In this document: piece after piece, positions 5,730 to 27,750 of the stretch
How positions within the stretch are numbered: position 1 is the stretch's first letter
How the letters are laid out: each line of letters starts with the position of its first letter
DNA from: Pseudomonadota bacterium
Lineage (GTDB): Bacteria; Pseudomonadota; Gammaproteobacteria; Xanthomonadales; Wenzhouxiangellaceae
Reading direction: 5' to 3'
Assembly (NCBI GenBank): GCA_036832975.1
Contig: DAITQM010000007.1
Coordinates: 14,465 to 78,464 of the forward strand
DNA: 64,000 nt
The notes under the pieces: generated by a model
Seen by the model: only the letters and a program-made list of their open reading frames with translations
Told to the model about the DNA's origin: nothing
Databases searched by the model: none
Program-made: the position numbers and the translations under genes

Positions 5730-6162
5730 CGTCCACCCCGCCGGCAACGGCGGCCCAACCCGTTTTATGCGGGCGGTAACCGATTTCGCCTTGGCGCTCC
5801 AAATCGCCGTAATAACCGGCGAAAATCAAAGTGCGCAAACCCCACACCGCCAGCCGGAGCTTCAAGACCGGCGCCTCGTGCAGCGTTTCCAAAAAGCACC
5901 GCAGCCGATCTGCCGGGATGCGTTCGAACGGGCTGAAAAACCGCGCCGCCGCCAACAGGACCACGCCGCGCAGTGCCAATGTCACCTGCCGGCGCAGCCG
6001 CCCGGGCCGCGCCGCCAACATGGCATCCGCCCGCGCCAGCACGCCGGCTATCCCCGCTTCATCCAGTACCGCAGCGGCGGGGATAAACGCTTCGACCAAC
6101 GGACGCAGGCGCCGCGGCCGGCGCGCCAGTAGCAAAATCTCATCAGTCACGACAAACCCCAA
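5716..6162 (-). CDS. Small accessory subunit-like protein co-transcribed with the GMC oxidoreductase (gluconate 2-dehydrogenase subunit 3-like), hypothetical
   Basis: ORF overlaps the downstream GMC gene start by 14 nt. Arg-rich N-terminus (RRPRRLRP). Start codon uncertain (TTG 6162 or GTG 6150). Confidence 0.45.
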   Translation of the reverse strand: MGFVVTDEILLLARRPRRLRPLVEAFIPAAAVLDEAGIAGVLARADAMLAARPGRLRRQVTLALRGVVLLAAARFFSPFERIPADRLRCFLETLHEAPVLKLRLAVWGLRTLIFAGYYGDLERQGEIGYRPHKTGWAAVAGGVDDAAH

Positions 6163-6176: not shown

Positions 6177-6435
6177 AACCCAATTGTTGCATAGATTCCC
6201 GGAATTCCCTGCCTGCCGGCAGGCAGGTCGGTCAAGCTGGTGAGAGCAGCTTGTCCAATTCCCTGACAAATGCGTCTGGAACGCAATTTGAACCGCGCAG
6301 CGGGCCCGCAGGGCGAGGGCAGGATAGCACGAGTACAAATGCGTCGGGAACGCAATTTGAACCGCGAAGCGGGCCCGAAAAGCGAGGGCAGGATTGCCCA
6401 AGTAAATCGAGCAAAATTTATGCAACTATTGGGTT
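6177..6435. mobile_element. MITE-like non-coding element with terminal inverted repeats
   Basis: Left end AACCCAATTGTTGCATA (6177-6193) and right end TATGCAACTATTGGGTT (6419-6435) are imperfect inverted repeats. Interior has a perfect palindrome cctgcctgccggcaggcagg and two 69-bp tandem repeats. No ORF. The right end abuts the break in the intI stub. Confidence 0.6.
6267..6404 (+). repeat. Tandem direct repeat, 2 x 69 bp
   Basis: caaatgcgtcKggaacgcaatttgaaccgcg...gagggcaggat is repeated head to tail (6267-6335 and 6336-6404) with a few substitutions. Confidence 0.85.
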
Positions 6436-6534
6436 TACATACGCCTTTTCGGTGCGGATGCTGTAATGCCTGGCACAGATCTGCGTGCGAAGTTGATCGA
6501 GCAGTTTTAGTGGTATTTTACTAATGATAACCAT
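6418..6534 (-). pseudogene. intI: Integron integrase (intI) N-terminal stub, copy 1, truncated after about 33 codons
   Basis: Minus-strand translation is MVIISKIPLKLLDQLRTQICARHYSIRTEKAYV, then NPIVA and a stop. The LLDxLR...RHYSxRTExAY motif is the N-terminal SAM-like signature of integron integrases. It is divergent from the cassette array. The remainder is replaced by the MITE-like element. Confidence 0.7.
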
Positions 6535-6646
6535 TGAGTTTGAATCTAAGTTATTGAATTTTAATGAATATTATAGGCAAGTGAAAAATTATACACTGGA
6601 AGAAATGTTTATGGTATATTACTTTGGTGTATAGTTATAGTTAGGC
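6535..6646 (+). other. attI-like region, type 1, copy 1, ending in core site GTTAGGC
   Basis: Lies between the intI start codon and the first cassette. AT-rich. Inverted TATACAC/GTGTATA boxes. GTTRRRY core at 6640-6646. The first cassette begins with TTAGGC. Confidence 0.6.
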
Positions 6647-6660
6647 AGCTTCCTCACACG

Positions 6661-7179
6661 ATGAACGGGGATCCGTCCTCCAAGATGACCGAAAACGTTA
6701 CGGTCGAGCACGCAACCGAACGTGACGTAGCTGCCATCGCCGCGGTGCTCATCGCCAACCGCAACGATGCCTCGCTATTCCTCCGCTCGCAGCAGGACAT
6801 CGCTCGCTGCTTCAGCGACTTCATCGTTGCGAGGGACGGTTCAGCGCAACTCGTGGGCTGCGCTGCAATTCACCGATACGGGCCTAACCTGGCCGAACTT
6901 GTTTCGGTGGCTGTTGTGCCGACGCTTCACGGCGCCGGGATCGGGAGTTTGCTTGTTTCGCGATCCCTTCAGAAGGCAACCACCGGCGGCATCACAAGGG
7001 TGTGGCTAGCCACAGCCAAACCAACGTACTTTGCGCAGTTCGGCTTTCGGTCAATGTCACGTTGGGCGTTGCCGCTGGCCGTGCTTCTGTCCAAACTCAA
7101 GCAGGTGTTCCAGCAGCCGGTGGCCCACTGGTTCCCGTCTTTGTTCGCACGGTTTACTTTCATGGTCCGCGATGCGTAG
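6661..7179 (+). CDS. GNAT-family N-acetyltransferase (cassette 1)
   Basis: Acetyl-CoA binding motif VVPTLHGAGIGSLLV and the C-terminal YFAQFGF motif. Followed by an attC. Confidence 0.75.
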   Translation: MNGDPSSKMTENVTVEHATERDVAAIAAVLIANRNDASLFLRSQQDIARCFSDFIVARDGSAQLVGCAAIHRYGPNLAELVSVAVVPTLHGAGIGSLLVSRSLQKATTGGITRVWLATAKPTYFAQFGFRSMSRWALPLAVLLSKLKQVFQQPVAHWFPSLFARFTFMVRDA

Positions 7180-7188
7180 AAAGTCGAA

Positions 7189-7257
7189 AGCTAACACTTC
7201 GGTCAACCGGACGCTCCGCCGCAATGCGGCTCTGCGCCGGTTACCTCTGCGTTAGGC
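7189..7257 (+). other. attC site (69 bp) of cassette 1
   Basis: R'' AGCTAAC (7189-7195) and R' GTTAGGC (7251-7257). Imperfect palindrome cggtcaaccggac / gccggttacct. Confidence 0.7.
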
Positions 7258-7274
7258 GGACGGATCAAACGCCG

Positions 7275-8054
7275 TTGCAAGAACTCAACACAATCCTCCA
7301 ACTGATCCCGCAGGCTCGCGAATACCGGCGAGAGCAGATATCTATCGGCAGATCTGGCTCCTCGGTCTACGGACTCGCAAATCCTAGTAGGCCCACTCGG
7401 TTTCTGAAGGTGTCGACCGCGGATGACGCCTGCGATTTGGAGGCCGAACGCGATCGTCTTGCTTGGCTTGCGAACAGAACATTCGTTCCGAAGGTTCTAG
7501 AATTTGGTAAGGCCGAAGGATTTGCATTTCTTTTGACGGAGGCCCTTCCCGGAGCCAACGCTGCAGAAGCACCTGCGCGCCTTTGGTCTCGGCTTGTTGA
7601 GCAGGTAGCACGCCAGTTGCGTCAACTACACTCGCTGCACCCCGATGACTGCCCGTTCGATCGGACCCTTGATCGAGTCATACTCCTTGCGGGCCAGCGC
7701 GCCGAGACTGGTTTGGTAGACGATTCCGACTTCGACCCCGAGCATACCGGCCGTAGCGCAATGGAGTTACTCACCTCGCTCCACCACAGGCGCCCCCAAT
7801 CCGAGGACATAGTCGTTACGCACGGCGATGCCTGCCTACCCAACCTAATCTTCGAGAATGGCAACTTCAGCGGGTTCGTAGATTGCAGGCGATGTGGTCG
7901 TGCTGATCGATATCAGGACCTTGCGCTGGCACACCGACGCATCGAAAGTAACTTTGGAGGCAGCCTCGCCGAGGATTTCCTTAGCGCATACGGATTGGAG
8001 CATGTCGACTCCCGGAGGCTATCCTACTATCGCTTGCTGGATGAGTTCTTCTAG
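7275..8054 (+). CDS. Aminoglycoside/antibiotic phosphotransferase (APH-family kinase) (cassette 2)
   Basis: Kinase motifs VVTHGDACLPNLIF and VDCRRCGRADRYQDLALA. The track ORF (from 7002) crosses the attC at 7189-7257, so the start must lie inside the cassette. In-frame TTG at 7275 proposed; start uncertain. Confidence 0.75.
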   Translation: MQELNTILQLIPQAREYRREQISIGRSGSSVYGLANPSRPTRFLKVSTADDACDLEAERDRLAWLANRTFVPKVLEFGKAEGFAFLLTEALPGANAAEAPARLWSRLVEQVARQLRQLHSLHPDDCPFDRTLDRVILLAGQRAETGLVDDSDFDPEHTGRSAMELLTSLHHRRPQSEDIVVTHGDACLPNLIFENGNFSGFVDCRRCGRADRYQDLALAHRRIESNFGGSLAEDFLSAYGLEHVDSRRLSYYRLLDEFF

Positions 8055-8063
8055 TGGACAGCC

Positions 8064-8163
8064 GCCTAACATGGCCGATGCAGCTGACATCAAAAAGCGT
8101 CACACAAATTGCTTCCGCAATTTGTCCGCCGTTTTCCGGCGCAGCTGATCGCCGGTGTTATAC
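8064..8163 (+). other. attC site (100 bp) of cassette 2
   Basis: R'' GCCTAAC (8064-8070) is the exact complement of the cassette start TTAGGC (7252). R' is GTTATAC (8157-8163). Arms atggccgatgcagctg / cagctgatcgccggt. Confidence 0.8.
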
Positions 8164-8181
8164 CAATTGGAGGGGCATAAT

Positions 8182-9069
8182 ATGTGGAATATTTTTTCTA
8201 TTGCTTTCTTTCTAGCATTACTCTTCATTACATTGGAAGCAAATGCAATTGAATCCCGGATCTCGTGGACGACTGTGAAGGACCAGCGGTCGTTGGATGA
8301 GATCATTCAGAATTCCGTTTCACAAGGGAAGAGTTCAGTTCTTTACTTCTCCGTCGATTGGAGCGTTGACGCAAATCGCACTGAAAAAAACCTATGGATA
8401 CCGAAAAAAGGGCATGAACACTTTAATTTCATAAAAGTCGATCTAAGCGCATGGGATGAAGAGTCGAAGCTACTTATTGCCCACTATAATCTAAGCCAAG
8501 AAACATACACTCCGGTACTCATGATGTTAGATCAGAAGGGTCAAGAGGTAGAAGCAAGTAGGATTGTAGGCCCGAAGATCTTAACAATTAATGCTTTTGT
8601 TTTATGGCTACGTGAAGGGCATCTCAGCTTAACTTCCTCTTCTCCAACAATTGGTCACGTGACTATCGTCAGGACCGAAAGCGGGGGGAAGCCTAAGAAT
8701 GACGATATCGATTCTGTCTTTCGTTATAAAGTAAGTCACGAGGAAAGTACAATCATTGCAGACTTTACAATTTCTCCCAACTATTATCTCTACAAGGACA
8801 AATTTAAAATTGCAATAAACGGGAATGTTAGCCCTAGCGCTGATCTTCACTTTGCTGGAACACCGGTCCAACATGCCGATGCCGCTTGGGGTAGCAAAGA
8901 AGTATTTGAGGATAATGTGAAAATTGAACTCGATTTAGGCCGCAATAACTTCCTAATTTGCAATCCTGAAGCAGCCAATCAAATTGCTCTTTATTATCAG
9001 GGTTCAAGCAAATCAGGAAAATTCTACCCGCCACAAAAGCGAACTGTTCAATTTGAAGTAAGGTGCTAA
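8182..9069 (+). CDS. Secreted DsbD-like protein: thioredoxin-like (gamma-type) domain fused to a DsbD-alpha-like domain, catalytic cysteines absent (cassette 3)
   Basis: Signal peptide [22 protein letters not shown] preceded by [28 protein letters not shown] aligns with the DsbD-gamma [33 protein letters not shown] and [19 protein letters not shown] align with the DsbD-alpha DGYYLYRKQIRI and TYQGCADAGFCYPPETKTV. Confidence 0.65.
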   Translation: [295 protein letters not shown]

Positions 9070-9075
9070 AAAATT

Positions 9076-9185
9076 GTATAACAAGAGGCTGCTACGGACA
9101 CAAAACAGTTGGCGACTTTCCTGCGTTCGCTGCGCTCAGCCACAAAAGCGCCAACTGTTTTGTGCCGCAGAGCCATGCGTTGGGC
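9076..9185 (+). other. attC site (110 bp) of cassette 3
   Basis: R'' GTATAAC (9076-9082) is the exact complement of the cassette start TTATAC (8158). R' is GTTGGGC (9179-9185). Long arms cggacacaaaacagttggcg / cgccaactgttttgtgccg. Confidence 0.85.
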
Positions 9186-9297
9186 ATCATGAAAAGCGAG
9201 GCAGCCACGAATGCTGTAGTGCCTGAGGGGGCCTGGCACGGATCAGGAAGCGAAACTGGTCGAGTAGCTTTGGGAGTTTTTTACTATTGATAACCAT
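9186..9297 (-). pseudogene. intI: intI N-terminal stub, copy 2 (degenerate, contains an indel)
   Basis: Minus-strand translation MVINSKKLPKLLDQFRFLIRAR, then a small (8-9 nt) insertion, then HYSIRG. Homologous at nucleotide level to 6437-6534. It starts immediately after the R' of the preceding attC. Confidence 0.6.
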
Positions 9298-9410
9298 TGA
9301 GCTTGAATCTAAGTTATTGAATTTGGAGGAATATTCTATGCAAGTTAAAAAATTATACACCAGAAGAAATGTTTATGGCATATTACTTTGGAGTATAATT
9401 GTAATTGAGC
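9298..9410 (+). other. attI-like region, type 1, copy 2 (core mutated to ATTGAGC)
   Basis: Near-colinear copy of 6535-6646 (ccattgagYttgaatctaagttattgaatt...atggYatattactttgg). The core G is mutated. Confidence 0.55.
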
Positions 9411-9566
9411 GGCGCTCGCGCTCCCTCGCTTCGCACCGCTTAACGGATCGGGCGCCGGCGCCGGCGCCGGTGAAGGTGTCGCTAGCGGGGGACGAGGCGG
9501 CATAGTATGATTACCGGGTTGATCATAAGCTGATGAAATTACCGGATGCCGGGGAGCGCTCGCGCC

Positions 9567-9681
9567 GCCTAACCGGCGCTGGAGCGGACACCGCTTCTCG
9601 GCCAAGCCCCGTGCTAGCGGCGCGAGAATCCCTTTTCGCGCGCTGCGAGCGGGGTGCCGCTCAGCGCCCGATCCGTTAGGC
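9567..9681 (+). other. attC site (115 bp)
   Basis: R'' GCCTAAC (9567-9573) and R' GTTAGGC (9675-9681). Arms cggcgctggagcggacaccgc / gcggggtgccgctcagcgccc. An extra orphan R''-L'' arm, GCTTAACggatcgggcgc, sits at 9438-9455. Confidence 0.75.
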
Positions 9682-9720
9682 ATCGGTTCGGCAAAGTAGA
9701 GTAGAACGGACAGCGATGAT

Positions 9721-9942
9721 ATGAGCGCCAACAAAACAGTCTTAGACATGAATGATGACGAACTTTTACAGGGTTGTCGACGGACAGCAGAATGCACTCA
9801 ATTTTGGCACAACGACTATTATCGCGAGATAGAGCGCCGAACTCAAAATAGGCACACTAGAGCAATGATTTGGTTGACCGTAGTGATTGGTGTGTTGACA
9901 TTTGTTGCTACCGCTGCAACGGTTATCGGGGTAATAAAATAA
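9721..9942 (+). CDS. Small tail-anchored membrane protein, hypothetical (cassette 5)
   Basis: 73-aa ORF with a C-terminal TM helix IWLTVVIGVLTFVATAATVIGVI. Low-G+C codon usage like neighbouring cassettes. Confidence 0.45.
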   Translation: MSANKTVLDMNDDELLQGCRRTAECTQFWHNDYYREIERRTQNRHTRAMIWLTVVIGVLTFVATAATVIGVIK

Positions 9943-10031
9943 GAGTCATTGATAGACTGTAGTTGAATAGCTGGATCAACTTTAGGAAGCCGATCGAGGA
10001 CAGTCACCATCACCGTCACCCCAACGAGCCG

Positions 10032-10139
10032 ATCGAGCGGCTCGCGGCCGCACAGCCAGGCCTGGCGGACGCAGCGCGAGATGCAGTGGTAAAAGCCCGG
10101 CTGGCCGGGGGTGACGATATGGGCGCGGGGGTAGGTCAT
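10032..10139 (-). pseudogene. Y1 (IS200/REP-associated type) transposase N-terminal fragment
   Basis: Minus-strand MTYPRAHIVTPGQPGFYHCISRCVRQAWLCGREPLD matches the conserved N-terminus of Y1 transposase-like proteins as I recall it. The reading frame loses similarity after about 36 aa. High-G+C patch inside a low-G+C cassette. Confidence 0.45.
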
Positions 10140-10279
10140 GGGGGCATGGTGCCGGATCTGCTGGCGTGGCTGTATCGGCCGAGGGCGCGTCAACGTGTAG
10201 GCCGGGGCCAACGGGGGTTGTCAGCGGGGGCTGACAGAGTCGTGACAACAGAATCATGACTGTCCCGAATCGGCTTCAC

Positions 10280-10430
10280 GTTCGCCGGCGCTGCGCGCCG
10301 GCGAACGGAGCGGCGATATGCGGCTTATAATGATAGTAACCGGAATGACGGAAATACCATCGAGCACAGGAGGCTGCGCATGACGATTGCTTCTTCGTTC
10401 AAGGCAATGCTGGCGCGCAACGCCGTCGAA
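10280..10430 (+). repeat. 151-bp repeat, copy 1: ORF-less cassette carrying hairpin, TATAAT box, SD and short-ORF start
   Basis: The first 77 nt are identical to 11462-11538 and the last 52 nt nearly so. Contains GTTCGCC/GGCGAAC forming an 11-bp perfect hairpin, TATAAT at 10326-10331, AGGAGG at 10368-10373 and ATG at 10380. Confidence 0.85.
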
Positions 10431-10507
10431 CCAGCAATGATGCCCCCATCGGGGAACGGGCATCGAGCCCGTCCCCCGATGGGCCGCATATCGCCGCTCC
10501 GTTGGGC
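10300..10507 (+). other. Unusually long attC-like site (208 bp) making up almost all of cassette 6
   Basis: R'' GGCGAAC (10300-10306) is the exact complement of the cassette start TTCGCC (10281). Arm ggagcggcgatatgcggc (10307-10324) pairs with gccgcatatcgccgctcc (10483-10500). R' is GTTGGGC (10501-10507). Confidence 0.6.
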
Positions 10508-10538
10508 ATCAGAACCGAGCCATTGGACTCTCTCATGA
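10380..10538 (+). CDS. Short ORF (52 aa) spanning the cassette 6/7 junction, stop overlapping the next gene's ATG
   Basis: AGGAGG, 6 nt, then ATG. Product MTIASSFKAMLARNAVEPAMMPP.... The TGA at 10536-10538 overlaps the ATG at 10535 (ATGA). The first 17 codons are conserved in the second repeat copy. Below the 60-aa track cutoff. Function unproven. Confidence 0.35.
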   Translation: MTIASSFKAMLARNAVEPAMMPPSGNGHRARPPMGRISPLRWASEPSHWTLS

Positions 10539-11398
10539 TGGAATCGAATAACAGATCCAGTCCCCTTCCGCTCAGTCGTAGAGTTCTTTACGGGATTACA
10601 GACTGGGCGCTACTTGGTGCGGGGCTTGCCAATCTTGCCGTCGGCACCCTCTCGGCATTGAATGATTCCGCAGCGATAGCTGCAACGTCCCTCGCAGCAG
10701 GTCTCGTGCTTCTATTTGCCGCAACCATTGATCGCTTTGAGTCATTGAAGGGGCTTGGTATCGAGGCGAAGACTAAGCAACTCGATCAAAAGATCATCCA
10801 AGCCGATGACGCATTGCGACGTCTTCGTGAGATGACTGAGATCACGGGGGCGGCACTGATTGATCTAAACAGCAAGATGGGCCGATGGGACTCTGCTCCC
10901 GGGGCGCGAGAGACGATCGCTCTCGCCGATCGCGTCAGACAGATAATGAAAAATTTGGGGTCCAGCGATGACGTTATCACTTCCGCCCTACGTCCTTGGG
11001 CAAAGACACTTTGCTTTGACATGGCTATCGCGCAAACGCATGGATTAAGAGGACTACTGCAAGCCCGTATAAGTTCGCTGGAGGCCGAACGTCAGAAGAT
11101 CAAGCAGCCAATCCAGCCAGATGATCCACTCTTCAATCAGCTAACTACCCAAATTCGGTCAATACAAGAATTTCAGGGTTCTCGACTCAAGGATCTGCGT
11201 CGACTGGAACTTGAAGACTATCCGCACCGATTCATGGAAATATTTGACGACGTTCCACAGATCGACCCGGTCGAAATAGACAGTCTTCGCAAAGCTGCGG
11301 CTCGCTTTGCTCCTGGCATGTCTTCTCTTCGTGAATCCAGGTCATTGCCGGACCCAGAGTTGTGGATAGATGCTCTCAGCAAAGCGCGGGAACGCTGA
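10535..11398 (+). CDS. Hypothetical protein with two N-terminal TM helices and a long helical/coiled-coil domain (cassette 7)
   Basis: TM segments ITDWALLGAGLANLAVGTLSAL and AIAATSLAAGLVLLFAATI, then a heptad-rich region. I recognise no family motif. Cassette start TTGGGC (10502) matches R'' GCCCAAC. Confidence 0.55.
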   Translation: MMESNNRSSPLPLSRRVLYGITDWALLGAGLANLAVGTLSALNDSAAIAATSLAAGLVLLFAATIDRFESLKGLGIEAKTKQLDQKIIQADDALRRLREMTEITGAALIDLNSKMGRWDSAPGARETIALADRVRQIMKNLGSSDDVITSALRPWAKTLCFDMAIAQTHGLRGLLQARISSLEAERQKIKQPIQPDDPLFNQLTTQIRSIQEFQGSRLKDLRRLELEDYPHRFMEIFDDVPQIDPVEIDSLRKAAARFAPGMSSLRESRSLPDPELWIDALSKARER

Positions 11399-11399
11399 T

Positions 11400-11468
11400 G
11401 CCCAACCCTGCGGTCAACCGGACCTTGCACATAAAGCCGCGCAAGGCCGGTTACCTTGAACGTTCGCC
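11400..11468 (+). other. attC site (69 bp) of cassette 7
   Basis: R'' GCCCAAC (11400-11406) is the exact complement of TTGGGC. Arms cggtcaaccggacc / ggccggttacc, the same attC family as 7189-7257. R' is GTTCGCC (11462-11468). Confidence 0.75.
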
Positions 11469-11612
11469 GGCGCTGCGCGCCGGCGAACGGAGCGGCGATA
11501 TGCGGCTTATAATGATAGTAACCGGAATGACGGAAATATGATGGAGAATAGGCGGCTTCGCATGACGATTGTTCCTTCGTTCAAGGCAGCGCTGGCGCGC
11601 AACGCCGTCGAA
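11462..11612 (+). repeat. 151-bp repeat, copy 2 (3' attC arm missing; fused to ttctagttatac)
   Basis: Same hairpin, TATAAT (11508-11513) and short-ORF start (ATG 11562; 18 codons MTIVPSFKAALARNAVEF). The stop TAG ends exactly on the G of the GTTATAC core (11618-11624). Confidence 0.85.
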
Positions 11613-11637
11613 TTCTAGTTATACGGCTTAAATCACT

Positions 11638-12485
11638 ATGCCATCAGCAACCATCAAATTATTTCTGGTCAATGGTGACCCCAAAAGGCTTCGAACCGCT
11701 GAAATTTCTAATTGGAGTGGTAAGGCTGTTGCTGGGCCTCGTAGTGAGTTTGATGGCATATTGGCGCGGAATGAATCTTTTCAAGCCGGTATATATCTAC
11801 TTGCGGGTACTGATCCAGAAACTGGTAAGCCAGCACTTTATGTTGGTGAAGGGGAATGTATAAAAGACAGAATAAAGGCTCATCTTTCAAAGGATTTCTG
11901 GAATCAAATTATTTTCTTTGTTAGTAAAGACGAAAATTTAACCAAATCACACATTCGCTATCTAGAAGGCCGGCTTATTGAACAAGCCTTAAAAGCTAAA
12001 CGCTGCATTGTTACAAATAACCAAAATAGCGGGGCTAAGCTTCCAGAGTCTGACAAAGAGGATATGGAAGTATTTTTAAGTAAAATTTTCCAATTGTTAC
12101 CAGTATTGGGTGTTGAGTTACTTGTTTCGGTATCTGAAAAATCCCCAACAGATAAAAAGGAAAGAGAAATACTTTATTGTGAAATTAAGGGCATAAAAGC
12201 TAAGGGTCACCTGGTTCCAAATGGATTATTAGTACTGAAAGACTCTGAGGCGGTGTTTAAAGAACGGCCATCTGTAGAAAAATATCCATGGCCTAAAAAT
12301 ATGAGAGATAAATTCCTGGAGGAGGGAACTCTTATTGCGGATGGTGACAGGCTTATTTTACTGAAGATGTAGAATTTTCAAGTCCAAGTGCAGCAGCAGC
12401 TGTAATTCATGGCGGACATGCTAATGGACTCACTGCTTGGAAAAATAAGACGGGTGTAACACTGAAAGAAATGGAAGCCGGATAA
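11638..12485 (+). pseudogene. GIY-YIG nuclease with C-terminal DUF4357-like domain, interrupted by a frameshift near 12345-12352 (cassette 9)
   Basis: GIY-YIG motif GIYLL...LYVGEGECIKDRIKAH. Frame 1 stops at 12372. The conserved tail TEDVEFSSPSAAAAVIHGGHANGLTAWKNKTGVTLKEMEAG continues in another frame to TAA at 12483-12485. Could be a true frameshift or a sequencing error. Confidence 0.65.
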
Positions 12486-12557
12486 CATGTCATTCCACCG
12501 GACAAAATTTCCGCTGCTTGCGCAGCTCAATTTTGCCGGTGAATTCCGGCGTTAGAC
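12480..12557 (+). other. attC site (78 bp) of cassette 9
   Basis: R'' GGATAAC (one mismatch to the complement of TTATAC). Arms cattccaccggacaaaatt / aattttgccggtgaattc. R' is GTTAGAC (12551-12557). Confidence 0.75.
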
Positions 12558-12560
12558 GGC

Positions 12561-14441: not shown

Positions 14442-14485
14442 CCGTTCTTCACCGAAAGCAGATATTGCAGAGGAGCGCATATGTC

Positions 14486-14582
14486 GCCTAACGACGTTGC
14501 AAGTGTCGTATGATCAGCTGCCCACTTTTGCTGTCGCAAAAGCGGCCATCGCCTCAGAAGCACCTGAACGTGGACGTTAAAT
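14486..14582 (+). other. attC site (97 bp) of cassette 10
   Basis: R'' GCCTAAC (14486-14492). R' GTTAAAT (14576-14582) fits GTTRRRY. Arms gacgttgcaagtg / cacctgaacgtggac. Confidence 0.65.
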
Positions 14583-15045
14583 GGCACGCATGAAACATAC
14601 CCCGCACGGGTTCTGGCGCCACGGAAAAGATTTTCTTTCTGCTGCAGATGCTGTAAAGCCCCCGTCGGAGAAAATAAGGATAATGGATGGGGTGTCGATG
14701 GTCGCTTACTATTTGGTTGGCCACACAATCGAGCTCACGTTGAAGTCGTATCTGTTTGCAAAAGGGTACACGCTGTCAGATTTGCGTAATCCGAAAAAGT
14801 TTGGACACAGTATATCGAAATTGCTGGATGAATGTCGGAAACGGAAAATCGGGCGAGAGGTAAAACTCAGTAAAGCAGAAATTACAGCGATTCATTCGCT
14901 CAATGATGAGTACAAAACAAAGAGATTTGAATACATTGAGTATGGCATGTACCGCCTTCCGGACTATTTGTTCACGCGGGGTGTAGCTGAAAAGCTGGTC
15001 AATGGGCTTCAGCGATATGCCATGAATCCGCCATTTAACAAGTGA
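14581..15045 (+). CDS. HEPN-like domain protein (putative RNase/toxin module) (cassette 11)
   Basis: All-helical 154-aa ORF with the pattern AYYLVGHTIELTLKSYL and an Rx6H motif (RNPKKFGH) with N after R, as in HEPN domains. The ATG overlaps the R' core of the preceding attC. The assignment is by motif only. Confidence 0.4.
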   Translation: MARMKHTPHGFWRHGKDFLSAADAVKPPSEKIRIMDGVSMVAYYLVGHTIELTLKSYLFAKGYTLSDLRNPKKFGHSISKLLDECRKRKIGREVKLSKAEITAIHSLNDEYKTKRFEYIEYGMYRLPDYLFTRGVAEKLVNGLQRYAMNPPFNK

Positions 15046-15202
15046 AAGCAGGCGGACGAGCTAAAATGTGCGCCTCTGTTTGAAGGTCTCCGTATACCTA
15101 TCTGAGTCGCCAATTTGGACCTGCAAGTCTGCTCAACTTTGGAGTGCGCCAATAGCTTCAGCAACTAGGTGGCTGCTCTCGGCACTATCCTCAGGACAAA
15201 TC

Positions 15203-15243
15203 GGGGACAGTCATCATCCACAAGCGGAATCTTGACTGTCCCC
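15203..15243. repeat. Inverted repeat GGGGACAGTCA - 19 nt - TGACTGTCCCC at the break of intI stub 3
   Basis: Perfect 11-bp arms. The GGACAGTCA core recurs at three other rearrangement junctions in the island. Confidence 0.7.
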
Positions 15244-15248
15244 AGCCT

Positions 15249-15403
15249 TTACATTTCCCTGGGGTGTCGCTTGTGATTGAACAGAATGAAGCGCCGCACC
15301 TTGTCGGTGTAGCATTTTTCAGTCCGGATGCTGTAATGGTGCGCCCGGATGGAATCTCGAAGGCGGTCAAGCAGCTTTTGGGGCTTTTTGCTTCAGTCAA
15401 CAC
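15249..15403 (-). pseudogene. intI: intI N-terminal stub, copy 3 (different lineage; frameshift in an A-run, truncated after about 45 codons)
   Basis: Minus-strand KKPQKLLDRLRDSIRAHHYSIRTEKCYTDKVRRFILFNHKRHPREM then a stop: the classic IntI N-terminal motif. The start (GTG/TTG at 15403) is in a different frame. Confidence 0.7.
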
Positions 15404-15517
15404 AGATTGGGTGAGCGTAACTCATTGATTGGTAGGAAGAATTTGTGCTATGATGTGTATTTATACACCATTTAACATTTTTTATCAACCATTTTTGGTG
15501 TCGAATTCTAGTTAGAC
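15404..15517 (+). other. attI-like region, type 2, ending in core GTTAGAC
   Basis: AT-rich spacer between intI stub 3 and the next cassette. Palindromes gtgtatttatacac and acacca...tggtgt. Core GTTAGAC at 15511-15517. The next cassette's R'' is GTCTAAC. Confidence 0.5.
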
Positions 15518-15530
15518 CGACGAGAACCCG

Positions 15531-16031
15531 ATGGCTCCGAAATCAACTGAAACCGTGGAGTCTTGCCCCGAGTGCGGAGCGTCAGTACTCAGCGGCCGTG
15601 CAGGGTGCCAGCGGTTGTTCGACGAAATCCTGGCGCGTGAATTCGGCGACTACAGGTACGCCGGCGAGCACCGCTTGATGGTGGATGTTTACTCCCTCCA
15701 GCATCCTGCAGAGTACATGCGGTCGGCGAAGTCGTATGCGGCGCACCTTACCGGAATGTACGCGGCGCTCGAACTCAGTGGCACGTCCGAGGTGAATCGG
15801 GCTGTCCAGACATGGCTGAACGGGCCCCAGACCTTCCAACGCCCAGACAATCCTGGGCCGCTGCGGCGGGGAGTGCTCACGATCGTCCACATCCATGAGG
15901 CAAGAGAGCCTGAAGAGCACGTTCGCCGGGTCCGCGAATGGGCGCAGTCTGTTTGGGAGGCTTGGCGCGGCTACCATCATGTGGCCAAGCAGTGGATTGA
16001 GGAAGCGACTGCACGTCTGCGGGCGGTCTAA
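15531..16031 (+). CDS. DUF5946-like protein with N-terminal Cys cluster (cassette 12)
   Basis: CPECGA...GCQRLFDEIL followed by a helical region. The family assignment is from memory. The R'' box overlaps the stop codon. Confidence 0.5.
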   Translation: MAPKSTETVESCPECGASVLSGRAGCQRLFDEILAREFGDYRYAGEHRLMVDVYSLQHPAEYMRSAKSYAAHLTGMYAALELSGTSEVNRAVQTWLNGPQTFQRPDNPGPLRRGVLTIVHIHEAREPEEHVRRVREWAQSVWEAWRGYHHVAKQWIEEATARLRAV

Positions 16032-16125
16032 CAGGCCGTTGCAGACTGACGAGCGGCGCTGGCAGGTCAAGCGGGATTGAGACGAGTCGAAGCGCCGCTC
16101 GCAGCTGAGCGGCACGGCGTTAGCT
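16026..16125 (+). other. attC site (100 bp) of cassette 12
   Basis: R'' GTCTAAC (16026-16032) is the exact complement of TTAGAC (15512). Arms ggccgttgcagactgacgagcggcgc / gcgccgctcgcagctgagcggcacggc. R' is GTTAGCT (16119-16125). Confidence 0.8.
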
Positions 16126-16156
16126 GCGCAAGTACTCTACTCAGGAACATAGAAAG

Positions 16157-16783
16157 ATGTATGTCCCGAATCATTTTAAAGAAGAAGACCAAGACAAGCT
16201 TCAACAGTACATTCGAGATTATGGATTTGGGCTGCTCGTCATCGCAGACGAAAAAGGGATTGAGGCCAATCACGTACCCTTTCATCTGAGTTCTGGGGCA
16301 AACGGCTCTCTTGGTTATCTTCAGTGTCACCTGGCCCGCAGTAATCCAGTCTGGCAACGTATGCAGGGCGGAGTTCGAGTGCTTGTAGTTTTTCAGGGGC
16401 CAGATGCTTACGTTTCACCCTCATGGTACGCAACCAAGGCCGAGACAGGCCGGGTCGTCCCAACATGGAACTATCTAGCTGTCCATGCACAAGGTAACGC
16501 CCAGATTATTCAGGATCCAAGCTGGTTGAAACGTCATCTCCATCAGCTAACAGACCAACATGAGTCGCAAATGGTCGCCCCTTGGTCTGTGGACGATGCG
16601 CCGACGGATTTCACTGAGCGTTTGGTACAGGCTATTGTAGGCGTAGAGATCAAAATTGAAACTCTGACGGGTAAGCTGAAAGCAAGTCAGAATCAGCCGG
16701 AGAGGAATCGGACCGGTGTCAAAGCTGGCCTCATGACAGGAGAAGGATCGCAGAACCGTGCCATGGCCAAGCTCATCAGCTAA
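16157..16783 (+). CDS. paiB: FMN-binding negative transcriptional regulator, PaiB family (cassette 13)
   Basis: MYVPNHFKEED...ANHVPFHL N-terminus and the PTWNYLAVHAQG motif are typical of PaiB. Confidence 0.75.
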   Translation: MYVPNHFKEEDQDKLQQYIRDYGFGLLVIADEKGIEANHVPFHLSSGANGSLGYLQCHLARSNPVWQRMQGGVRVLVVFQGPDAYVSPSWYATKAETGRVVPTWNYLAVHAQGNAQIIQDPSWLKRHLHQLTDQHESQMVAPWSVDDAPTDFTERLVQAIVGVEIKIETLTGKLKASQNQPERNRTGVKAGLMTGEGSQNRAMAKLIS

Positions 16784-16855
16784 CCAGGGGCTGTTGTCGG
16801 ACGGTTTTTCCGTCGCTTCGGTCCTCCAAAACCGCCGCAAAGCTCGGCGTTATGC
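16778..16855 (+). other. attC site (78 bp) of cassette 13
   Basis: R'' AGCTAAC (16778-16784) is the exact complement of TTAGCT (16120). R' is GTTATGC (16849-16855). Confidence 0.75.
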
Positions 16856-16907
16856 CGCAGCAAAGAGCCTGGTTGACATGTCATATATGGTATAGTCATA
16901 ATATGGT

Positions 16908-17189
16908 ATGTGGCGCATCGAAGAGCACCGCCGGGTAGATAGGCAGGTTGCAACGATTCCGAAGGATATTCTGAAGCGATATGAGAAATGGAAAGATATC
17001 GTGACAATATCCGGTCCACCTGGACTTCGGCTTATTCGGGGGTTCCATGACGAGGCGCTATCGAGTAAGTGGCGTGGGTATCGGTCATCCCGGCTTGGAC
17101 TTCAGTGGCGTGTTATATACCGTGTAATTCCGGAAAAGCTGCTGTTCCAAGTGGCATCGATAACCGCCCATGACTATCGGAGGCCTTGA
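16908..17189 (+). CDS. RelE/ParE-superfamily toxin (toxin-first, HigB-like gene order) (cassette 14)
   Basis: 93-aa basic protein with the WRVIYRV and ITAHDYR motifs. It overlaps a downstream XRE antitoxin. Confidence 0.65.
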   Translation: MWRIEEHRRVDRQVATIPKDILKRYEKWKDIVTISGPPGLRLIRGFHDEALSSKWRGYRSSRLGLQWRVIYRVIPEKLLFQVASITAHDYRRP

Positions 17190-17190
17190 A

Positions 17191-17451
17191 ATGAGAGATT
17201 ATCGTCCCGCAAAAAAGCGCATCGAGGTGTCGGTAGGAGAATCCGTACGGATTCTTCGCGAACTTCAGGATCTGAGCCAAAGCCAGCTCTCCCGTTTGAC
17301 CGGGATTCCGCAGGCAACCATCTCCGCCATCGAGAATGATCGGGTCCGCCTGGGAGTGGAGCGAGCGAAAGTTCTAGCCAAGGCTCTCAAGTGCCATCCG
17401 GGTGTGTTGGTATTCCCGGGTTGGGAGCTTCCCGGGAAGGCTGCGGCATAA
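17191..17451 (+). CDS. XRE-family HTH antitoxin
   Basis: HTH LSQSQLSRLTGIPQATISAIENDR. GGAGG lies 8 nt upstream of the ATG at 17191. The cassette R'' GCATAAC (17446-17452) overlaps the stop and is the exact complement of the cassette start TTATGC (16850). Confidence 0.7.
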   Translation: MRDYRPAKKRIEVSVGESVRILRELQDLSQSQLSRLTGIPQATISAIENDRVRLGVERAKVLAKALKCHPGVLVFPGWELPGKAAA

Positions 17452-17482
17452 CACGTCGTTCGTGCGGACCGGCTGTGCCGGC

Positions 17483-17850
17483 TGTCATTTTTCACCCATA
17501 TGGCGCCATTTCGTTTTCGCCTTAAAGGCGCCACCTGTTTTTCGGGTTAAAGGCGCCAGGGCGTATTCGCCCTAAAGGCGCCACCGGATTTTCGGCCTAA
17601 AGGCGCCACCAGGGCGGCCGGTTTTCGCGTTTCAGACTTCTTTCAATGGCCTACCCTCGGTTGTTTTGACCGAGGAGGGCCCGATGAACCGGAGGTTTGA
17701 GATGCACCAGTACCGACATATCCTTGCCCGCATGCGCCTTTGCGAGTCCGATCGCCAGATCGATGCGGCCGACCTGATGAATCGGAGAATGGCGGCCAAG
17801 CTGCGCAAAAGGGCAACCTTAATGCAGATGAACGAATATACGCCATGAGA
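17483..17850 (+). mobile_element. IS21-family (IS408-like) left-end remnant inserted in the attC of cassette 14
   Basis: Starts TGTCA. Five copies of GGCGCCA-containing units of about 24 bp (17500-17612), typical of the multiple terminal repeats of IS21-family ends. Followed by the IstA N-terminus MNRRFEMHQYRHILARMRLCESDRQI (17684 onward), truncated near 17815-17850. Confidence 0.5.
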
Positions 17851-17852
17851 AG

Positions 17853-17894
17853 TAGTTATGGTATATTACTTTGGTGTATAATTGTAATTTAGAA
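17853..17894 (+). other. attI type-1 core, third partial copy
   Basis: agttatggtatattactttggtgtataattgtaatttagaa matches 6607-6646 closely. The core is degenerated to TTTAGAA. The next cassette's R'' is TTCTAAC, complementary to TTAGAA. Confidence 0.55.
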
Positions 17895-17897
17895 CGC

Positions 17898-18548
17898 ATG
17901 AACATCGCCACTCTTCGCAAGAAATATCAAGAAGGACGGCTAGATGTCGAGGACCTGCTGCAGGCCGCAATTGAAAAGCAGCCGGGCCTATCTGAAGAAT
18001 TGGCGCGTTTGGCGACGGCATATGGTTGGCAAACGCAGGGGCTTCAGTCCAACGGCACACGGGAAGTCCCTTTCGCGAAGTGGGCCGCAATCGCGAGTGC
18101 ATATGCAGATAGTGGATTCGATGGTCTTCGAGCGCAGGTTCAAGAGCCACAAAACATTCCGTTCGTTTTAGGTTTGGTTGAAGAAATAAAGTCCTCCGAT
18201 GCCGTAGCCTTCGTTCTAGAAATATCAGATCAGTACCTTAAAGGCGAAGCCTCTGAAGAGCTTGCTGCTCGGATCGCGTCTGCGTTTAATCTTTTGCTTT
18301 CCTTCAAACAAGCTGCTCCCGTCTCTTCCGCCCAAGCCGCAGCGATACAAAATTTCTTGATTGCTGTGTATCCCAGCCTTCAAGCTGAAGCCAAGCGGGC
18401 CATATGCCTACTTGCGCTTCGTGGCGTTGGAGATCAAAGTGCAATTCAGTTTGTTGAGGCTGCAGCTGATTTCAAGGAGCCGTGGAGTGATACAAAATCA
18501 GTTGTGCTTCGTGCCGTTCGAAAGCGGGTCAAAGCACATGCGTTCTAA
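17898..18548 (+). CDS. Hypothetical helical-repeat protein (cassette 15)
   Basis: 217-aa all-alpha ORF from ATG 17898. No recognisable motif. R'' TTCTAAC (18543-18549) overlaps the stop. The 3' attC arm is missing. Confidence 0.5.
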   Translation: MNIATLRKKYQEGRLDVEDLLQAAIEKQPGLSEELARLATAYGWQTQGLQSNGTREVPFAKWAAIASAYADSGFDGLRAQVQEPQNIPFVLGLVEEIKSSDAVAFVLEISDQYLKGEASEELAARIASAFNLLLSFKQAAPVSSAQAAAIQNFLIAVYPSLQAEAKRAICLLALRGVGDQSAIQFVEAAADFKEPWSDTKSVVLRAVRKRVKAHAF

Positions 18549-18767
18549 CGATTCCGTCGAGACGGACCGCCTGCAGGCTGCACTTTAGGGTTTCCTACGC
18601 GGCTTCGCTGCTACGGTGGCACCTCACGTCAAACCTTGGTCGTCACTAGCATGATACTGGCGCTGCCACGAGCTACGCTCAGATCTGATGTATGAGCTTA
18701 CTTGAAAAGCGGCGGCAATCTCTGCTGAAATTAGAAGTGTCAACCCACTGATTTCAGACAAAAAGAC

Positions 18768-19190
18768 ACCCAGGCGCAAGCCCATCGAGTAGGTGGTCAG
18801 CATGAATATCCGGTAGCGCAGCTTGCGCGCCGCACCGATCAGGCGCTCAATCTCCGCGACTCTCAGAATGACAGGCAGCGAGCGAATCTTCGGCGCCCGG
18901 ATCATCTCGACCCACTGCCAGTCACGCCCGAGTACATGTTTGTAGAAGAACTGCAAGCTGCACCGGTCCAGCTTGACGGTGGGCCAGGAATGCGACTCGA
19001 CCAGTTCGGTAAAGCATCGCGCCAACTGCTCGGGCTCCAGCCGATCCGGGCAGCAATCGAACCAAGCCGAAATCCGCCGCACGGCGCGGGTATAGGCCTC
19101 GATGGTCCTGTCGCTCATGCCCTGCAATTTCAGGGCCAGGAGGTGTTTCAGGTACAGTTCGTCGAACCGTTTTTGCTCGGATTTTTTCAT
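18768..19190 (-). pseudogene. Tyrosine recombinase of the IS91-associated type, C-terminally truncated (catalytic domain missing)
   Basis: MKKSEQKRFDELYLKHLLALKLQGMSDRTIEAYTRAVRRI...RKLRYRIFMLTTYSMGLRLG matches the N-terminal 140 aa of integrases found next to IS91-family transposases (from memory). Similarity ends at 18768. The track ORF 18624..19310 carries unrelated ends. Confidence 0.55.
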
Positions 19191-19381
19191 GGTGGTAAAC
19201 TCCTTGAAAATGCGCCCCGATTGGGCGCCGGTCAAGGATTGCACAGAATGAATGGGGTTTTCTGCCGCGGAGCGGCTTCGTTCAACAACAGCATACAGCG
19301 GATGGTCCACTGCGCGGCCCGCAACTGGTACTGGACGTTATGTATCTGAAATACCTGATCACGTCGTATTGGACGCATTGA

Positions 19382-19642
19382 ATGGGAAAGTATTCAAAAC
19401 TCAGGGAAAAAATTCTGGCGGGCATCGCTGATTCAAACATCGAGTTTGCCGAATTGTGCAAGTTACTTGGTCGCCTTGAATTTGAGGAGCGGGTAAGGGG
19501 TGACCATCACATCTTCACTCGGTATGGTGTTGTCGAGATCATCAATTTGCAGCCCAAGGGCAAGAAGGCGAAACCCTATCAAGTCAGGCAAGTCAGAGGT
19601 ATTATTGTGAAATATCGATTGGGAGAAAGCAATGTCGATTAA
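19382..19642 (+). CDS. hicA: HicA-family toxin (cassette 16)
   Basis: 86 aa with GDHHIFT and KPYQVRQV motifs. It overlaps hicB by 11 nt. Confidence 0.75.
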   Translation: MGKYSKLREKILAGIADSNIEFAELCKLLGRLEFEERVRGDHHIFTRYGVVEIINLQPKGKKAKPYQVRQVRGIIVKYRLGESNVD

Positions 19643-19844
19643 ATATGAATTTATTATTTACTGGAGCGAAGAAGATCACAGCTTTGTAGTCGAGGTTCCT
19701 GAGCTGCCTGGGTGTATGGCGGACGGAGAAAACTACGAACAAGCTGTGGCTAATGCACAAAAGGTAATTGAGGAATGGATTGCAACCGCGAAGGAGCTGA
19801 ATCGGCCGGTTCCGGAACCCCGTGGCCGGCTGATGTATGCATAA
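19632..19844 (+). CDS. hicB: HicB-family antitoxin
   Basis: YEFIIYWSEEDHSFVVEVPELPGCMADGENYEQAV is the canonical HicB N-terminal fold motif. Confidence 0.8.
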   Translation: MSIKYEFIIYWSEEDHSFVVEVPELPGCMADGENYEQAVANAQKVIEEWIATAKELNRPVPEPRGRLMYA

Positions 19845-19910
19845 CAAACCCATCAAACCGACGATCTTTTCGCTGTGCTTCGTTCGCACGGCTTATGGGC
19901 AACGTTATAT
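19839..19910 (+). other. attC site (72 bp) of the hicAB cassette
   Basis: R'' GCATAAC (19839-19845). Arms aaacccatcaaaccg / cggcttatgggc. R' is GTTATAT (19904-19910). The cassette starts at GTTATGT (19337-19343). Confidence 0.7.
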
Positions 19911-20120
19911 TTCTTAAGCATGACCAAAAATCATGAGGTTATCGGCCAATCGATGACAGTCACGATCACTCCGACAACGACCCAAAAGGTAGTTCATCCA
20001 CCCTGCCTCGGCTATTGATTGGTATCATTTCAATCGTCCGGGGACGAAACAGACGGCGATGAGGCAGAAAAGGGCCCCGCTCTTTCTGCTGTACCGCATA
20101 ACGAACGGCATCGACCGCCT

Positions 20121-20190
20121 GTCAGGGAATTGAACAAGTTGCACTCGTCAGCTTGACCGAGAATTCCGGGAATCTATGCAACAATTGGGT
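20121..20190. repeat. Half copy of the MITE-like element, inverted relative to 6177-6267
   Basis: The reverse complement of 20161-20190 is identical over 30 nt to 6178-6207 (acccaattgttgcatagattcccggaattc). Homology continues for about 45 more nt. It abuts a last orphan R'' GCATAAC (20096-20102). Confidence 0.85.
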
Positions 20191-20282: not shown

Positions 20283-20552
20283 TCAGTGATCGGCGCCGCT
20301 TAGGTGATTGCGGATTTTGACGATCAGGATCGACAGGGACAGGATGCCGGTGATGAGGTTGGCGACGACGATGGCCGGGTCGCCGATCGCCCAGCCGTAG
20401 AGGAACCAGAAGACTACGCCGGTGGTGAATATGGCGTACATCGACAGGGCCAGCGAACGGGTGTCACCGGTGCGCAGTGTTTTGATCGCCTGCGGCAGAA
20501 AGGCGACGGTGGTCAACGTTGCGGCGGTATAACCAAACCAAAGCGCGGGCAT
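20283..20552 (-). CDS. SemiSWEET / PQ-loop family transporter
   Basis: About 89 aa with three TM helices and the PQ motif (FLPQAIKTLRTGDTRSLA). Start taken at MPALW. Confidence 0.75.
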   Translation of the reverse strand: MPALWFGYTAATLTTVAFLPQAIKTLRTGDTRSLALSMYAIFTTGVVFWFLYGWAIGDPAIVVANLITGILSLSILIVKIRNHLSGADH

Positions 20553-20613
20553 GGGCGGCTCCTGGAAATGGATGAACAATAGGGGAGGAATGATAAGGGA
20601 ATCGAACTATCGC

Positions 20614-21048
20614 TCAGGCCGATTCGTGCCGTTTCTTTCCAGCTTTTACTAGCCCATCGAGCGAGCGGTCGATCGCATTTTTAGCGGCGGCAGTCAACCC
20701 GCCGCGCTCGTATTGCTCGACCAGCAGTTTCTCCAACCGCTGCACAACCTGGTCGAAGTTCTGAGTCGCGGTGTCGTGTACCGATTGTTCATCGTGCTCT
20801 ACTGCACCGAATAAATTAATCCACCGCTCGGTTCGGCAACCGAAGTGCAGTACCGAATAAAAATGGCGGCTGTGCAGTTCATGGGGCGACAAAAGATCGA
20901 CGAGCCCGGCGATCAGGGCAGCCGGACCCAGTATCAGATCGCGCAGGGCGTCGATAACGAGTCGCGCCTGAAAAGCGATGAGATCACCGATCAGCCGCCA
21001 GCGGCTTGGACTGTCGCCTGCCGGCGGCGTAGGCAGGTCTCGATTCAT
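20614..21048 (-). CDS. Hypothetical protein
   Basis: Backbone-like codon usage. One hydrophobic segment (LILGPAALIAGLV). No motif recognised. Confidence 0.5.
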   Translation of the reverse strand: MNRDLPTPPAGDSPSRWRLIGDLIAFQARLVIDALRDLILGPAALIAGLVDLLSPHELHSRHFYSVLHFGCRTERWINLFGAVEHDEQSVHDTATQNFDQVVQRLEKLLVEQYERGGLTAAAKNAIDRSLDGLVKAGKKRHESA

Positions 21049-27738: not shown

Positions 27739-27750
27739 CAGTTCGACTCC

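Follow-up and report, generated by a model that had tools for sequence, protein, structure and literature searches.

A decayed gene-cassette array with several truncated integron heads in a Wenzhouxiangellaceae contig

The DNA analysed here (the window) is a 64,000-nucleotide stretch of contig DAITQM010000007.1 (positions 14,465 to 78,464, assembly GCA_036832975.1) from a gammaproteobacterium of the family Wenzhouxiangellaceae. It contains an island of about 14 kb (6178–20190) which retains about 15 gene cassettes and which is, with high confidence, a degenerate chromosomal integron of the type called CALIN, in which attC sites are clustered without an integrase. As several integron heads are present, the island is a mosaic and not a single integron. 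A preliminary description, made from the sequence alone, had proposed one decayed integron. The decay is confirmed, but the island combines three stubs of the integron integrase IntI, accompanied by attI-like DNA, with two extra attI fragments. Worn-out integrons of this kind are common, and the present one is real but ordinary.

A gene cassette consists of an open reading frame (ORF), or sometimes of none, followed by an attC site. What IntI recognises is a hairpin with bulged bases, formed by the bottom strand of attC. The enzyme integrates cassettes at attI, removes them by recombination between attC sites, and cleaves between G and TT; the start of a cassette therefore complements the R'' box of its own attC. 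The base composition of the island conforms to its earlier portrayal as poorer in G+C than both flanks: it varies from 0.41 to 0.60, shifting cassette by cassette, against 0.63–0.67 to the left of 6.2 kb and 0.66–0.71 to the right of 21 kb. All intact ORFs of the island lie on the plus strand. The previous claim that this applies to every credible ORF needs a qualification, however, for the minus strand carries the three IntI stubs and one other recombinase remnant.

A search for attC sites with a covariance model, which had been suggested as a check, was executed with a model that owes nothing to the window. The seed model (R1) comprised 13 attC sites from plasmid class 1 integrons and from the array of Halomonas halocynthiae, trimmed to equal arms; genuine attC sites kept out of its training scored 12–26 bits, all on the correct strand. 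A refined model (R2) was then built from 25 R1 matches (class 1 integron and Halomonas attC sites, the held-out ones included, none from the window) and run on both strands of all 64 kb with filters off. R2 recovered ten of the 11 complete attC sites proposed in the preliminary description, at identical starts and all on the plus strand, eight of them clearly (E < 0.1) and two marginally:

7189–7257, plus strand: attC, R2 score 38.2 bits
8064–8163, plus strand: attC, 21.9 bits
9076–9185, plus strand: attC, 31.5 bits
9567–9681, plus strand: attC, 16.2 bits, E 0.055
11400–11468, plus strand: attC, 25.1 bits
12480–12557, plus strand: attC, 47.7 bits
14486–14582, plus strand: marginal attC, 11.6 bits, E about 1
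16026–16125, plus strand: marginal attC, 11.7 bits, E 0.9
16778–16855, plus strand: attC, 53.8 bits
19839–19910, plus strand: attC, 42.5 bits

The two marginal sites differ in their arm duplexes, which amount to −25.4 kcal/mol at 16026, compared to −10.1 kcal/mol for shuffled sequence, and show no gain over shuffled sequence at 14486. R2 does not recognise the eleventh proposed site, at 10300, a perfect palindrome of 208 bp that lacks bulges, and we treat it as an atypical attC. Outside the island, R2 gave no match with E < 0.05 in the 64-kb window. Its one probable false match (7553–7602, minus strand) scored 15.6 bits, and in 218 kb of other DNA it produced five matches, all within two other cassette clusters.

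Folding and arm-duplex calculations revealed a common anatomy, in which R'', a spacer of about 5 nt and L'' are followed by L', a spacer and R'. In an attC site, the outer boxes (RYYYAAC and GTTRRRY) bound an imperfect palindrome of about 55–150 nt that an attC covariance model matches, and ten of the sites conform to this. Extrahelical bases, which the sites had been expected to display on folding, are confined to the L'' arm in nine of the 11. They are typically C or G, followed by A six pairs later; on the bottom strand, which is the recombining one, these positions read G/C and T. By the same L''-arm bulge asymmetry, which gives an attC its strand selectivity, all class 1 control matches fell on the correct strand. 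An energy-based attC finder gave 13 matches on the correct strand and none on the other in class 1 arrays and Halomonas; with relaxed settings it over-fires in the G+C-rich flanks, and was hence used as a strand control only.

Isolated half-sites tell a similar story. The pattern of R'', spacer and L'' is strongly enriched on the plus strand of the island, with five strict matches versus 0.24 in shuffles. Among the five orphan R'' arms listed previously, those at 15033, 17446 and 18543 share an R''-N5-L'' pattern ending in GGAC and that at 20096 is interrupted inside L'' by a MITE (miniature inverted-repeat transposable element) copy, but the arm at 11482 turned out to be a duplicate of the atypical palindrome.

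The crossover-point rule was examined by comparing the four variable bases that follow G|TT with the cassette's own R'' box in 15 cassettes. Matches were seen at 52 of 60 positions, with nine of the pairs exact, whereas 100,000 permutations gave a mean of 30.2 ± 3.3 matches and none reached either 52 matches or nine exact pairs. The units of the island are thus bounded by G|TT and begin with the complement of their own R'' box, as gene cassettes do. The nine exact pairs of first hexamer and R'' box had been put forward before, and every one of them was verified. The five further pairs that were described as each off by one base fared less well: the cassette starting at 6641 is off by two, and the pairing at 9180 is invalid because an intI stub and an attI head intervene. 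One of the exact pairs, TTCGCC/GGCGAAC, is a 24-nt hairpin inside a mini-cassette that lacks an ORF.

An independent line of evidence comes from a cassette, termed C2, the PaiB-like protein of which falls into one 90% cluster with a protein of Halomonas halocynthiae. At the DNA level, C2 and a cassette of the H. halocynthiae array share 87.8% identity over 744 nt, and the identity begins at G|TTAGCT and ends at G|TTATGC, which is exactly one cassette including its attC. The Halomonas homologue sits within more than 30 small co-oriented genes.

No intact IntI was found in the 64 kb by tblastn with IntI1 or by family searches, and the sole intact tyrosine recombinase of the window is XerC (TIGR02224, 337 bits versus a cutoff of 335). 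The same tblastn search detected two N-terminal fragments of IntI on the minus strand, at 15377–15252 and 6510–6415. Together with a third stub and adjacent attI-like DNA, these fragments belong to the following heads:

6436–6534, minus strand: IntI stub A (MVIISKIPLKLLDQLRTQICARHYSIRTEKAYV), covering residues 1 to about 33 and truncated by a MITE
6535–6646, plus strand: attI-like head A, crossover G|TTAGGC at 6640/6641, directly upstream of the first cassette
9207–9410: head B, a frameshifted IntI stub (9207–9297, minus strand) and attI-like DNA
15252–15517: head C, an IntI stub (15252–15392, minus strand; KLLDRLRDSIRAHHYSIRTEKCYTDKVRRFILFNHKRHPREM) and attI-like DNA, crossover G|TTAGAC at 15511/15512
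17831–17894, plus strand: head D, the last 64 nt of the head A/B attI type, recognised by homology

The stubs read KLLDxLR...HYSIRTE...RRFILF..KRHPREM and match only integron-integrase models in NCBIfam and PF13495 in Pfam. Stub A is 56% identical to IntI1 over 32 amino acids (tblastn), matches PF13495 with an E value of 0.0014, and hits two integron-integrase models and nothing else in NCBIfam. Stub C is the best supported (tblastn E 6e-8; PF13495, 44.5 bits versus a cutoff of 27; TIGR02249 positions 1–41, E 1e-9) and ends at a back-to-back inverted-repeat hairpin (15203–15247). The stub of head B was found by its homology to stub A and carries a 10-nt insertion.

Between each stub and its crossover point lies 104–125 nt of AT-rich DNA, which is putatively attI. 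Head A is 89% identical to 9279–9397; heads A and B and the 17831–17894 fragment are mutually homologous, while head C is of another type, the last 15 nt of which recur at an attI-C-like junction (11606–11620). All heads share one orientation. In heads B and D, ATT or TTT replaces GTT at the crossover, the equivalent position of head B being A|TTGAGC at 9404/9405. A scan with the Pc consensus gave one plus-strand match in head C (15425–15454) and none in heads A or B. The ORF at 18624–19310 was also considered as an intI remnant and rejected, as its homologues belong to IS91-type elements:

18755–19190, minus strand: tyrosine recombinase remnant of the 251-amino-acid kind that accompanies IS91-family transposases, not IntI

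The remnant is contained in ORF 18624–19190; its homologues have 251 amino acids and are 66–86% identical over the first 145 residues, and one of them precedes a gene with Zn_Tnp_IS91 and Y2_Tnp domains.

IntI stubs of a similar kind, 61–83 amino acids long, occur in other metagenomes. A 75-residue stub, the only one whose neighbourhood was inspected, adjoins cassette-like genes encoded on the other strand, and R2 detects attC sites there; its locus is another degenerate integron. In at least four ENA/JGI metagenome assemblies (loci L111–L114), a 75-residue stub is followed by a PQQ-repeat gene and by opposite-strand cassettes rich in toxin-antitoxin genes.

Considering (i) the independent attC model, (ii) the crossover-point rule, and (iii) the cassette shared with Halomonas, the earlier identification of an attC cluster with no functional integrase in cis is borne out. 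A CALIN is defined by two or more attC sites clustered within less than 4 kb of each other and by the lack of an integron integrase in the vicinity; the island qualifies, its widest gap being 3.0 kb (16855 to 19839). It is not a complete integron, as the array adjoins stubs of about 30–47 residues and no intact intI. Nor does it fall among the sedentary chromosomal integrons, which have more than 19 attC sites or are present in all genomes of a species (Cury et al. 2016): it has 10–11 attC sites and is absent from the single relative found. A search of the window against Rfam matched no family, and a literature search on the accession numbers returned no match.

In the history that we propose for this degenerate integron, the array would have grown by the joining of several integron platforms, and the 3′ parts of the intI genes would later have been lost by deletions from the upstream side. 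Its present edges would have been set by a MITE-associated rearrangement and not by IntI. The cassettes may be expressed from promoters in the attI heads and in toxin-antitoxin cassettes, and the array would be frozen unless an IntI encoded elsewhere acts in trans.

That last provision amounts to an alternative of its own, which we hold to be possible if doubtful, namely that the array is still active and that an IntI encoded elsewhere loads and excises cassettes through the surviving attI and attC sites. Eight attC sites are structurally intact, half of all CALIN reside in genomes that encode IntI elsewhere (Cury et al. 2016, PMC4889954), and whole-genome shotgun (WGS) project JRYH01 contains a second attC cluster. 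However, no intact intI was seen in the DNA examined, and the crossover triplet of heads B and D is without its G. The second cluster (locus L098, 7652–8614, contig JRYH01000384.1) comprises three attC sites on the minus strand (40.7, 39.9 and 21.7 bits) with small membrane-protein ORFs, and the locus ends before any integrase is visible.

A further-reaching proposal, which we regard as unlikely, is that the tandem, co-oriented heads record a serial capture of whole foreign integron platforms, which, in combination with the MITE ends, would yield a mobilisable cassette store with multiple entry points. In each round, the attI of a circular molecule consisting of intI, attI and cassettes would recombine with an attC of the array already in place; the backbone and most of intI would be deleted later. 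The attI heads would be retained, serving as promoters inside the array and giving an IntI that acts in trans additional points at which to load cassettes.

Returning to the degenerate integron itself, its cassettes and their remnants are arranged as follows:

6641–7251, plus strand: cassette A1, GNAT acetyltransferase (6661–7179, Pfam); attC 7189–7257
7252–8157, plus strand: cassette A2, APH(3')-family aminoglycoside phosphotransferase; attC 8064–8163
8158–9179, plus strand: cassette A3, secreted protein with a DsbD_N-like domain (PF11412; 8155/8183–9069); attC 9076–9185
9405–9681, plus strand: cassette B1, no ORF; nested attC-like palindromes, outer 9438–9681 and inner 9567–9681
9682–10279, plus strand: cassette B2 remnant, 73-amino-acid membrane ORF (9721–9942)
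10280–10507, plus strand: mini-cassette B3, no ORF; 208-bp perfect palindrome, R'' GGCGAAC, R' GTTGGGC
10502–11468, plus strand: cassette B4, 298-amino-acid ORF (10502–11398) with no family match; attC 11400–11468
11606–12557, plus strand: attI-C-like junction and cassette C'1, homologue of the defence candidate PDC-S14 with a DUF4357 tail; attC 12480–12557
12552–14582, plus strand: cassette C'2, 626-amino-acid HEAT-repeat protein (12561–14441, Pfam); weak attC 14486–14582
14577–15057, plus strand: cassette C'3, 154-amino-acid ORF (14581–15045) with a weak HEPN match; half attC, R''-L'', 15033–15057
15512–16125, plus strand: cassette C1, DUF5946 protein (15531–16031, Pfam); attC 16026–16125
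16120–16855, plus strand: cassette C2, PaiB-like FMN-binding protein (16157–16783); attC 16778–16855
16850–17482, plus strand: cassette C3, RelE-family toxin (16908–17189) and HTH antitoxin (17170–17451); half attC 17446–17482
17831–18570, plus strand: unit of head D followed by cassette D1, 225-amino-acid ORF (17871/17898–18548) with no family match; half attC from 18543
19300–19910, plus strand: cassette E1, preceded by an orphan 3′ half attC that ends GTTATGT at 19337
19905–20119, plus strand: cassette E2 remnant, the last; half attC (R'' at 20096) cut inside L''

The APH(3') protein of A2 scores 290.7 bits against NCBIfam NF033068 (cutoff 205) and is 46% identical to APH(3')-IIa. Its gene (7275–8054) has no ATG within the cassette, and the first in-frame start past the crossover, TTG at 7275, is the probable start. 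The PDC-S14 homologue of C'1 (PADLOC E 1e-79) is split by a stop at 12370, and its DUF4357 tail (50.4 bits) lies in a different reading frame. Cassette E1 encodes HicA (19382–19642) and HicB (19632–19844), both assigned by Pfam, and has its attC at 19839–19910. The toxin-antitoxin pair of C3 has a promoter-like site of its own (16873–16902). For four cassette ORFs, searches of Pfam, NCBIfam, PADLOC and PHROGs yielded no match, and the three longer ones have no significant sequence match in the PDB.

The array is also scarred by mobile elements, with several attC sites interrupted by insertion-sequence-like fragments. The attC of C3 is cut by such a fragment, which carries five 25-bp repeats:

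17483–17830, plus strand: unclassified insertion-sequence-like fragment with a short ORF; tandem repeat of 5 × 25 bp at 17477–17626

The repeat unit is GGCGCCA..TTTTCG..TAAA, and the fragment resembles an insertion-sequence end but has no match in Pfam or NCBIfam; a tentative assignment as an IS21-type end found no family support. A small element with terminal inverted repeats (9985–10278) takes up the 3′ end of B2. The long palindromic mini-cassette B3 is partly duplicated and fused to an attI fragment, the partial second copy lying at 11460–11612.

Side observations on these repeats are as follows. The element with terminal inverted repeats (..GCCGATCGAGGACAGTCA..) has a 294-bp copy at 9985–10278, a back-to-back pair of ends at 15203–15247, a solo end at 19941–19972 and a further copy on another JRYH01 contig (L096, around 5434); a tentative RayT-like fragment in 9985–10278 is without family support. 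Over 9.4 kb, the window and a JGI scaffold show four differences, all at 10329–10342 inside the long palindromic mini-cassette, which may reflect assembly cross-talk between the two palindrome copies. Outside the island, short repeats at 46909–47022, 54392–54459 and 55391–55564 are 93–100% identical to parts of JRYH01 loci L094, L096 and L102, and two of the three flank xerC.

The coordinates 6177 and 20190 had been taken for the ends of the integron. They are, in fact, inverted copies of a multicopy MITE, which separate the array from its neighbours:

4239–5729 and 5716–6150, minus strand: left flank, two-gene operon with a GMC oxidoreductase
About 6178–6434, plus strand: complete MITE copy, left edge of the island
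20120–20190, minus strand: right edge of the island, an inverted, partial MITE copy that comprises the element's first 71 nt and lacks the 20-nt palindrome
20283–20552, minus strand: right flank, SemiSWEET gene, followed by fixS, fixI, fixH and cbb3 oxidase genes

The left copy is composed of a 30-nt terminal repeat (6178–6207), a 20-nt palindrome (6208–6227), two units of a 69-bp tandem repeat (6266–6403) and a right end (6414–6434). Members of this family have the ends CCCAATTGTTGCATAGATTCCC...TGCAACWATTGGG, are 99–255 bp long and prefer a 4-bp TNNA target. Twenty other contigs of JRYH01 contain a 22-mer of the MITE, often at their ends, and three of the five complete copies found elsewhere in this project (99–219 bp) have a 4-bp duplication (TTAA, TTTA, TAGA). 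The inverted repeats at the two island edges are identical over 30 of 30 nt and then 88% identical over 41 nt. A partial match to the MITE is also present at 21064–21088, upstream of an ORF at 20614–21048.

These edges invite the explanation that the whole 14 kb is a composite transposon with MITE ends, akin to an integron mobilisation unit, which the transposase of the parent insertion sequence (IS) inserted here en bloc. Its outermost ends are indeed perfect 30-nt inverted repeats in the correct outward orientation, the family is multicopy and clearly mobile, leaving 4-bp duplications, and integrons bounded by MITEs are on record (PMC3934969). The island is, however, flanked by GTCA and TGTG, and the left MITE alone by GTCA and TTTA, in neither case with a target-site duplication, and the right copy is a mere 71-nt fragment. 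We therefore conclude that the edges, although made by MITEs, did not arise from a single simple insertion, and a one-piece insertion appears quite unlikely. An inversion model was rejected, as the flanking tetramers do not fit it. We infer that an adjacent deletion or a recombination between MITE copies is behind the edges.

The placement of the island could, in principle, be an artefact of the assembly, in which a contig from another part of the same genome, or from a plasmid, was attached to the flanks by way of the repeated MITE. The repeat that forms both edges is found on at least 20 contigs; two Logan contigs that match the flanks at 100% identity end within the 30-nt repeat on either side; and the left MITE of a JGI scaffold contains a run of N. 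Set against this, a separate JGI contig (Ga0104734_1000619) spans the right edge at 100% identity, running from SemiSWEET through the 71-nt MITE copy into HicAB, the JGI scaffold also joins the left side, and the NCBI contig is continuous. We thus consider such an artefact very unlikely.

The remaining explanation, that the palindromes are ordinary intergenic hairpins (terminators or REP-like) in a plain genomic island, has hairpins being common downstream of ORFs and the frequent firing of the energy-based finder in the G+C-rich flanks in its favour, but it is refuted by the strand-specific R2 matches confined to the island, the crossover-point rule, the asymmetric bulges, the cassette shared with Halomonas from boundary to boundary, and the IntI stubs.

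Several points nevertheless weigh against the reading of the island as a degenerate integron resident at this site. The left junction crosses a 255-bp multicopy repeat, with a gap in the JGI scaffold and breaks in the Logan contigs at this point. Relatives close enough to reveal an empty site are lacking: a GTDB scan with the GMC protein gave a best identity of 67% with no shared neighbours beyond the two-gene operon, and a search of genomes and metagenomes gave nothing closer than 72%. The second attC cluster lies on another JRYH01 contig, and an intact intI elsewhere in the genome is possible. Finally, the sites at 14486 and 16026 are marginal in R2, and the palindrome at 10300 escapes it.

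On the right side, a relative identified through the SemiSWEET protein cluster is 82–87% identical in DNA over 20308–30947, and synteny is lost at the SemiSWEET stop codon, beyond which the relative carries other genes. The window has a 144-amino-acid ORF without a family match between fixS and SemiSWEET (20614–21048, minus strand); this ORF is absent from the relative GCA_039794245.1, in which SemiSWEET directly follows fixS.

The features of the island recur, in part, in several known systems. Like the CALIN surveyed by Cury et al. (2016, PMC4889954), it has at least two attC sites on one strand, no integrase nearby and mostly unknown cargo, and insertion sequences adjoin it; the survey found a neighbouring IS in 38% of CALIN and more than ten attC sites in 6.6%. 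Compared to a typical CALIN, the island belongs to a larger class, with ten model-supported sites, and it possesses several attI heads. It also keeps N-terminal intI stubs, which the survey's search for the C-terminal domain of IntI would pass over. Truncation or deletion of intI, persistence of the array, and IS in and around it are likewise found in those chromosomal integrons of Xanthomonas whose intI is inactivated or truncated (bioRxiv 10.1101/2025.06.18.660453). Those have a single intI at a fixed site beside ilvD, however, whereas the island displays three stubs, five attI fragments and no conserved synteny.

The MITE edges find a parallel in Acinetobacter johnsonii XBB1, in which a Tn402-like class 1 integron is reported to be truncated at both ends by one 439-bp MITE, and the MITEs are proposed to have mobilised the integron segment (PMC3934969). 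Both cases comprise an integron-derived segment bounded on either side by copies of one MITE, but the MITE of the island is of another family (99–255 bp), its copies are inverted, one is a 71-nt fragment, and there is no duplication.

The sedentary array of H. halocynthiae (KE384440.1) shares one cassette (87.8% nucleotide identity) and the attC anatomy with the island, down to a near-identical L'' box (AGTCAACCGGAC in H. halocynthiae, GGTCAACCGGAC in the island). Over the 20 kb seen, its co-oriented cassettes number more than 30, whereas the island has about 15, broken by mobile-element scars. Several co-oriented attI heads are the only unusual trait of the island.

Surveys that rely solely on the C-terminal domain of IntI would score this island as being without an integrase remnant. 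The four cassette ORFs without a match are candidates for function screens and give no hint of a new kind of system. Furthermore, environmental cassettes here carry a divergent APH(3') gene as well as a gene homologous to a candidate for phage defence, and one cassette is common to an uncultured organism with 65% G+C and a species of Halomonas. The island represents a clean, well-delimited case of integron decay, in which intI has lost its 3′ part, mobile elements have damaged the attC sites and MITEs have shaped the edges.

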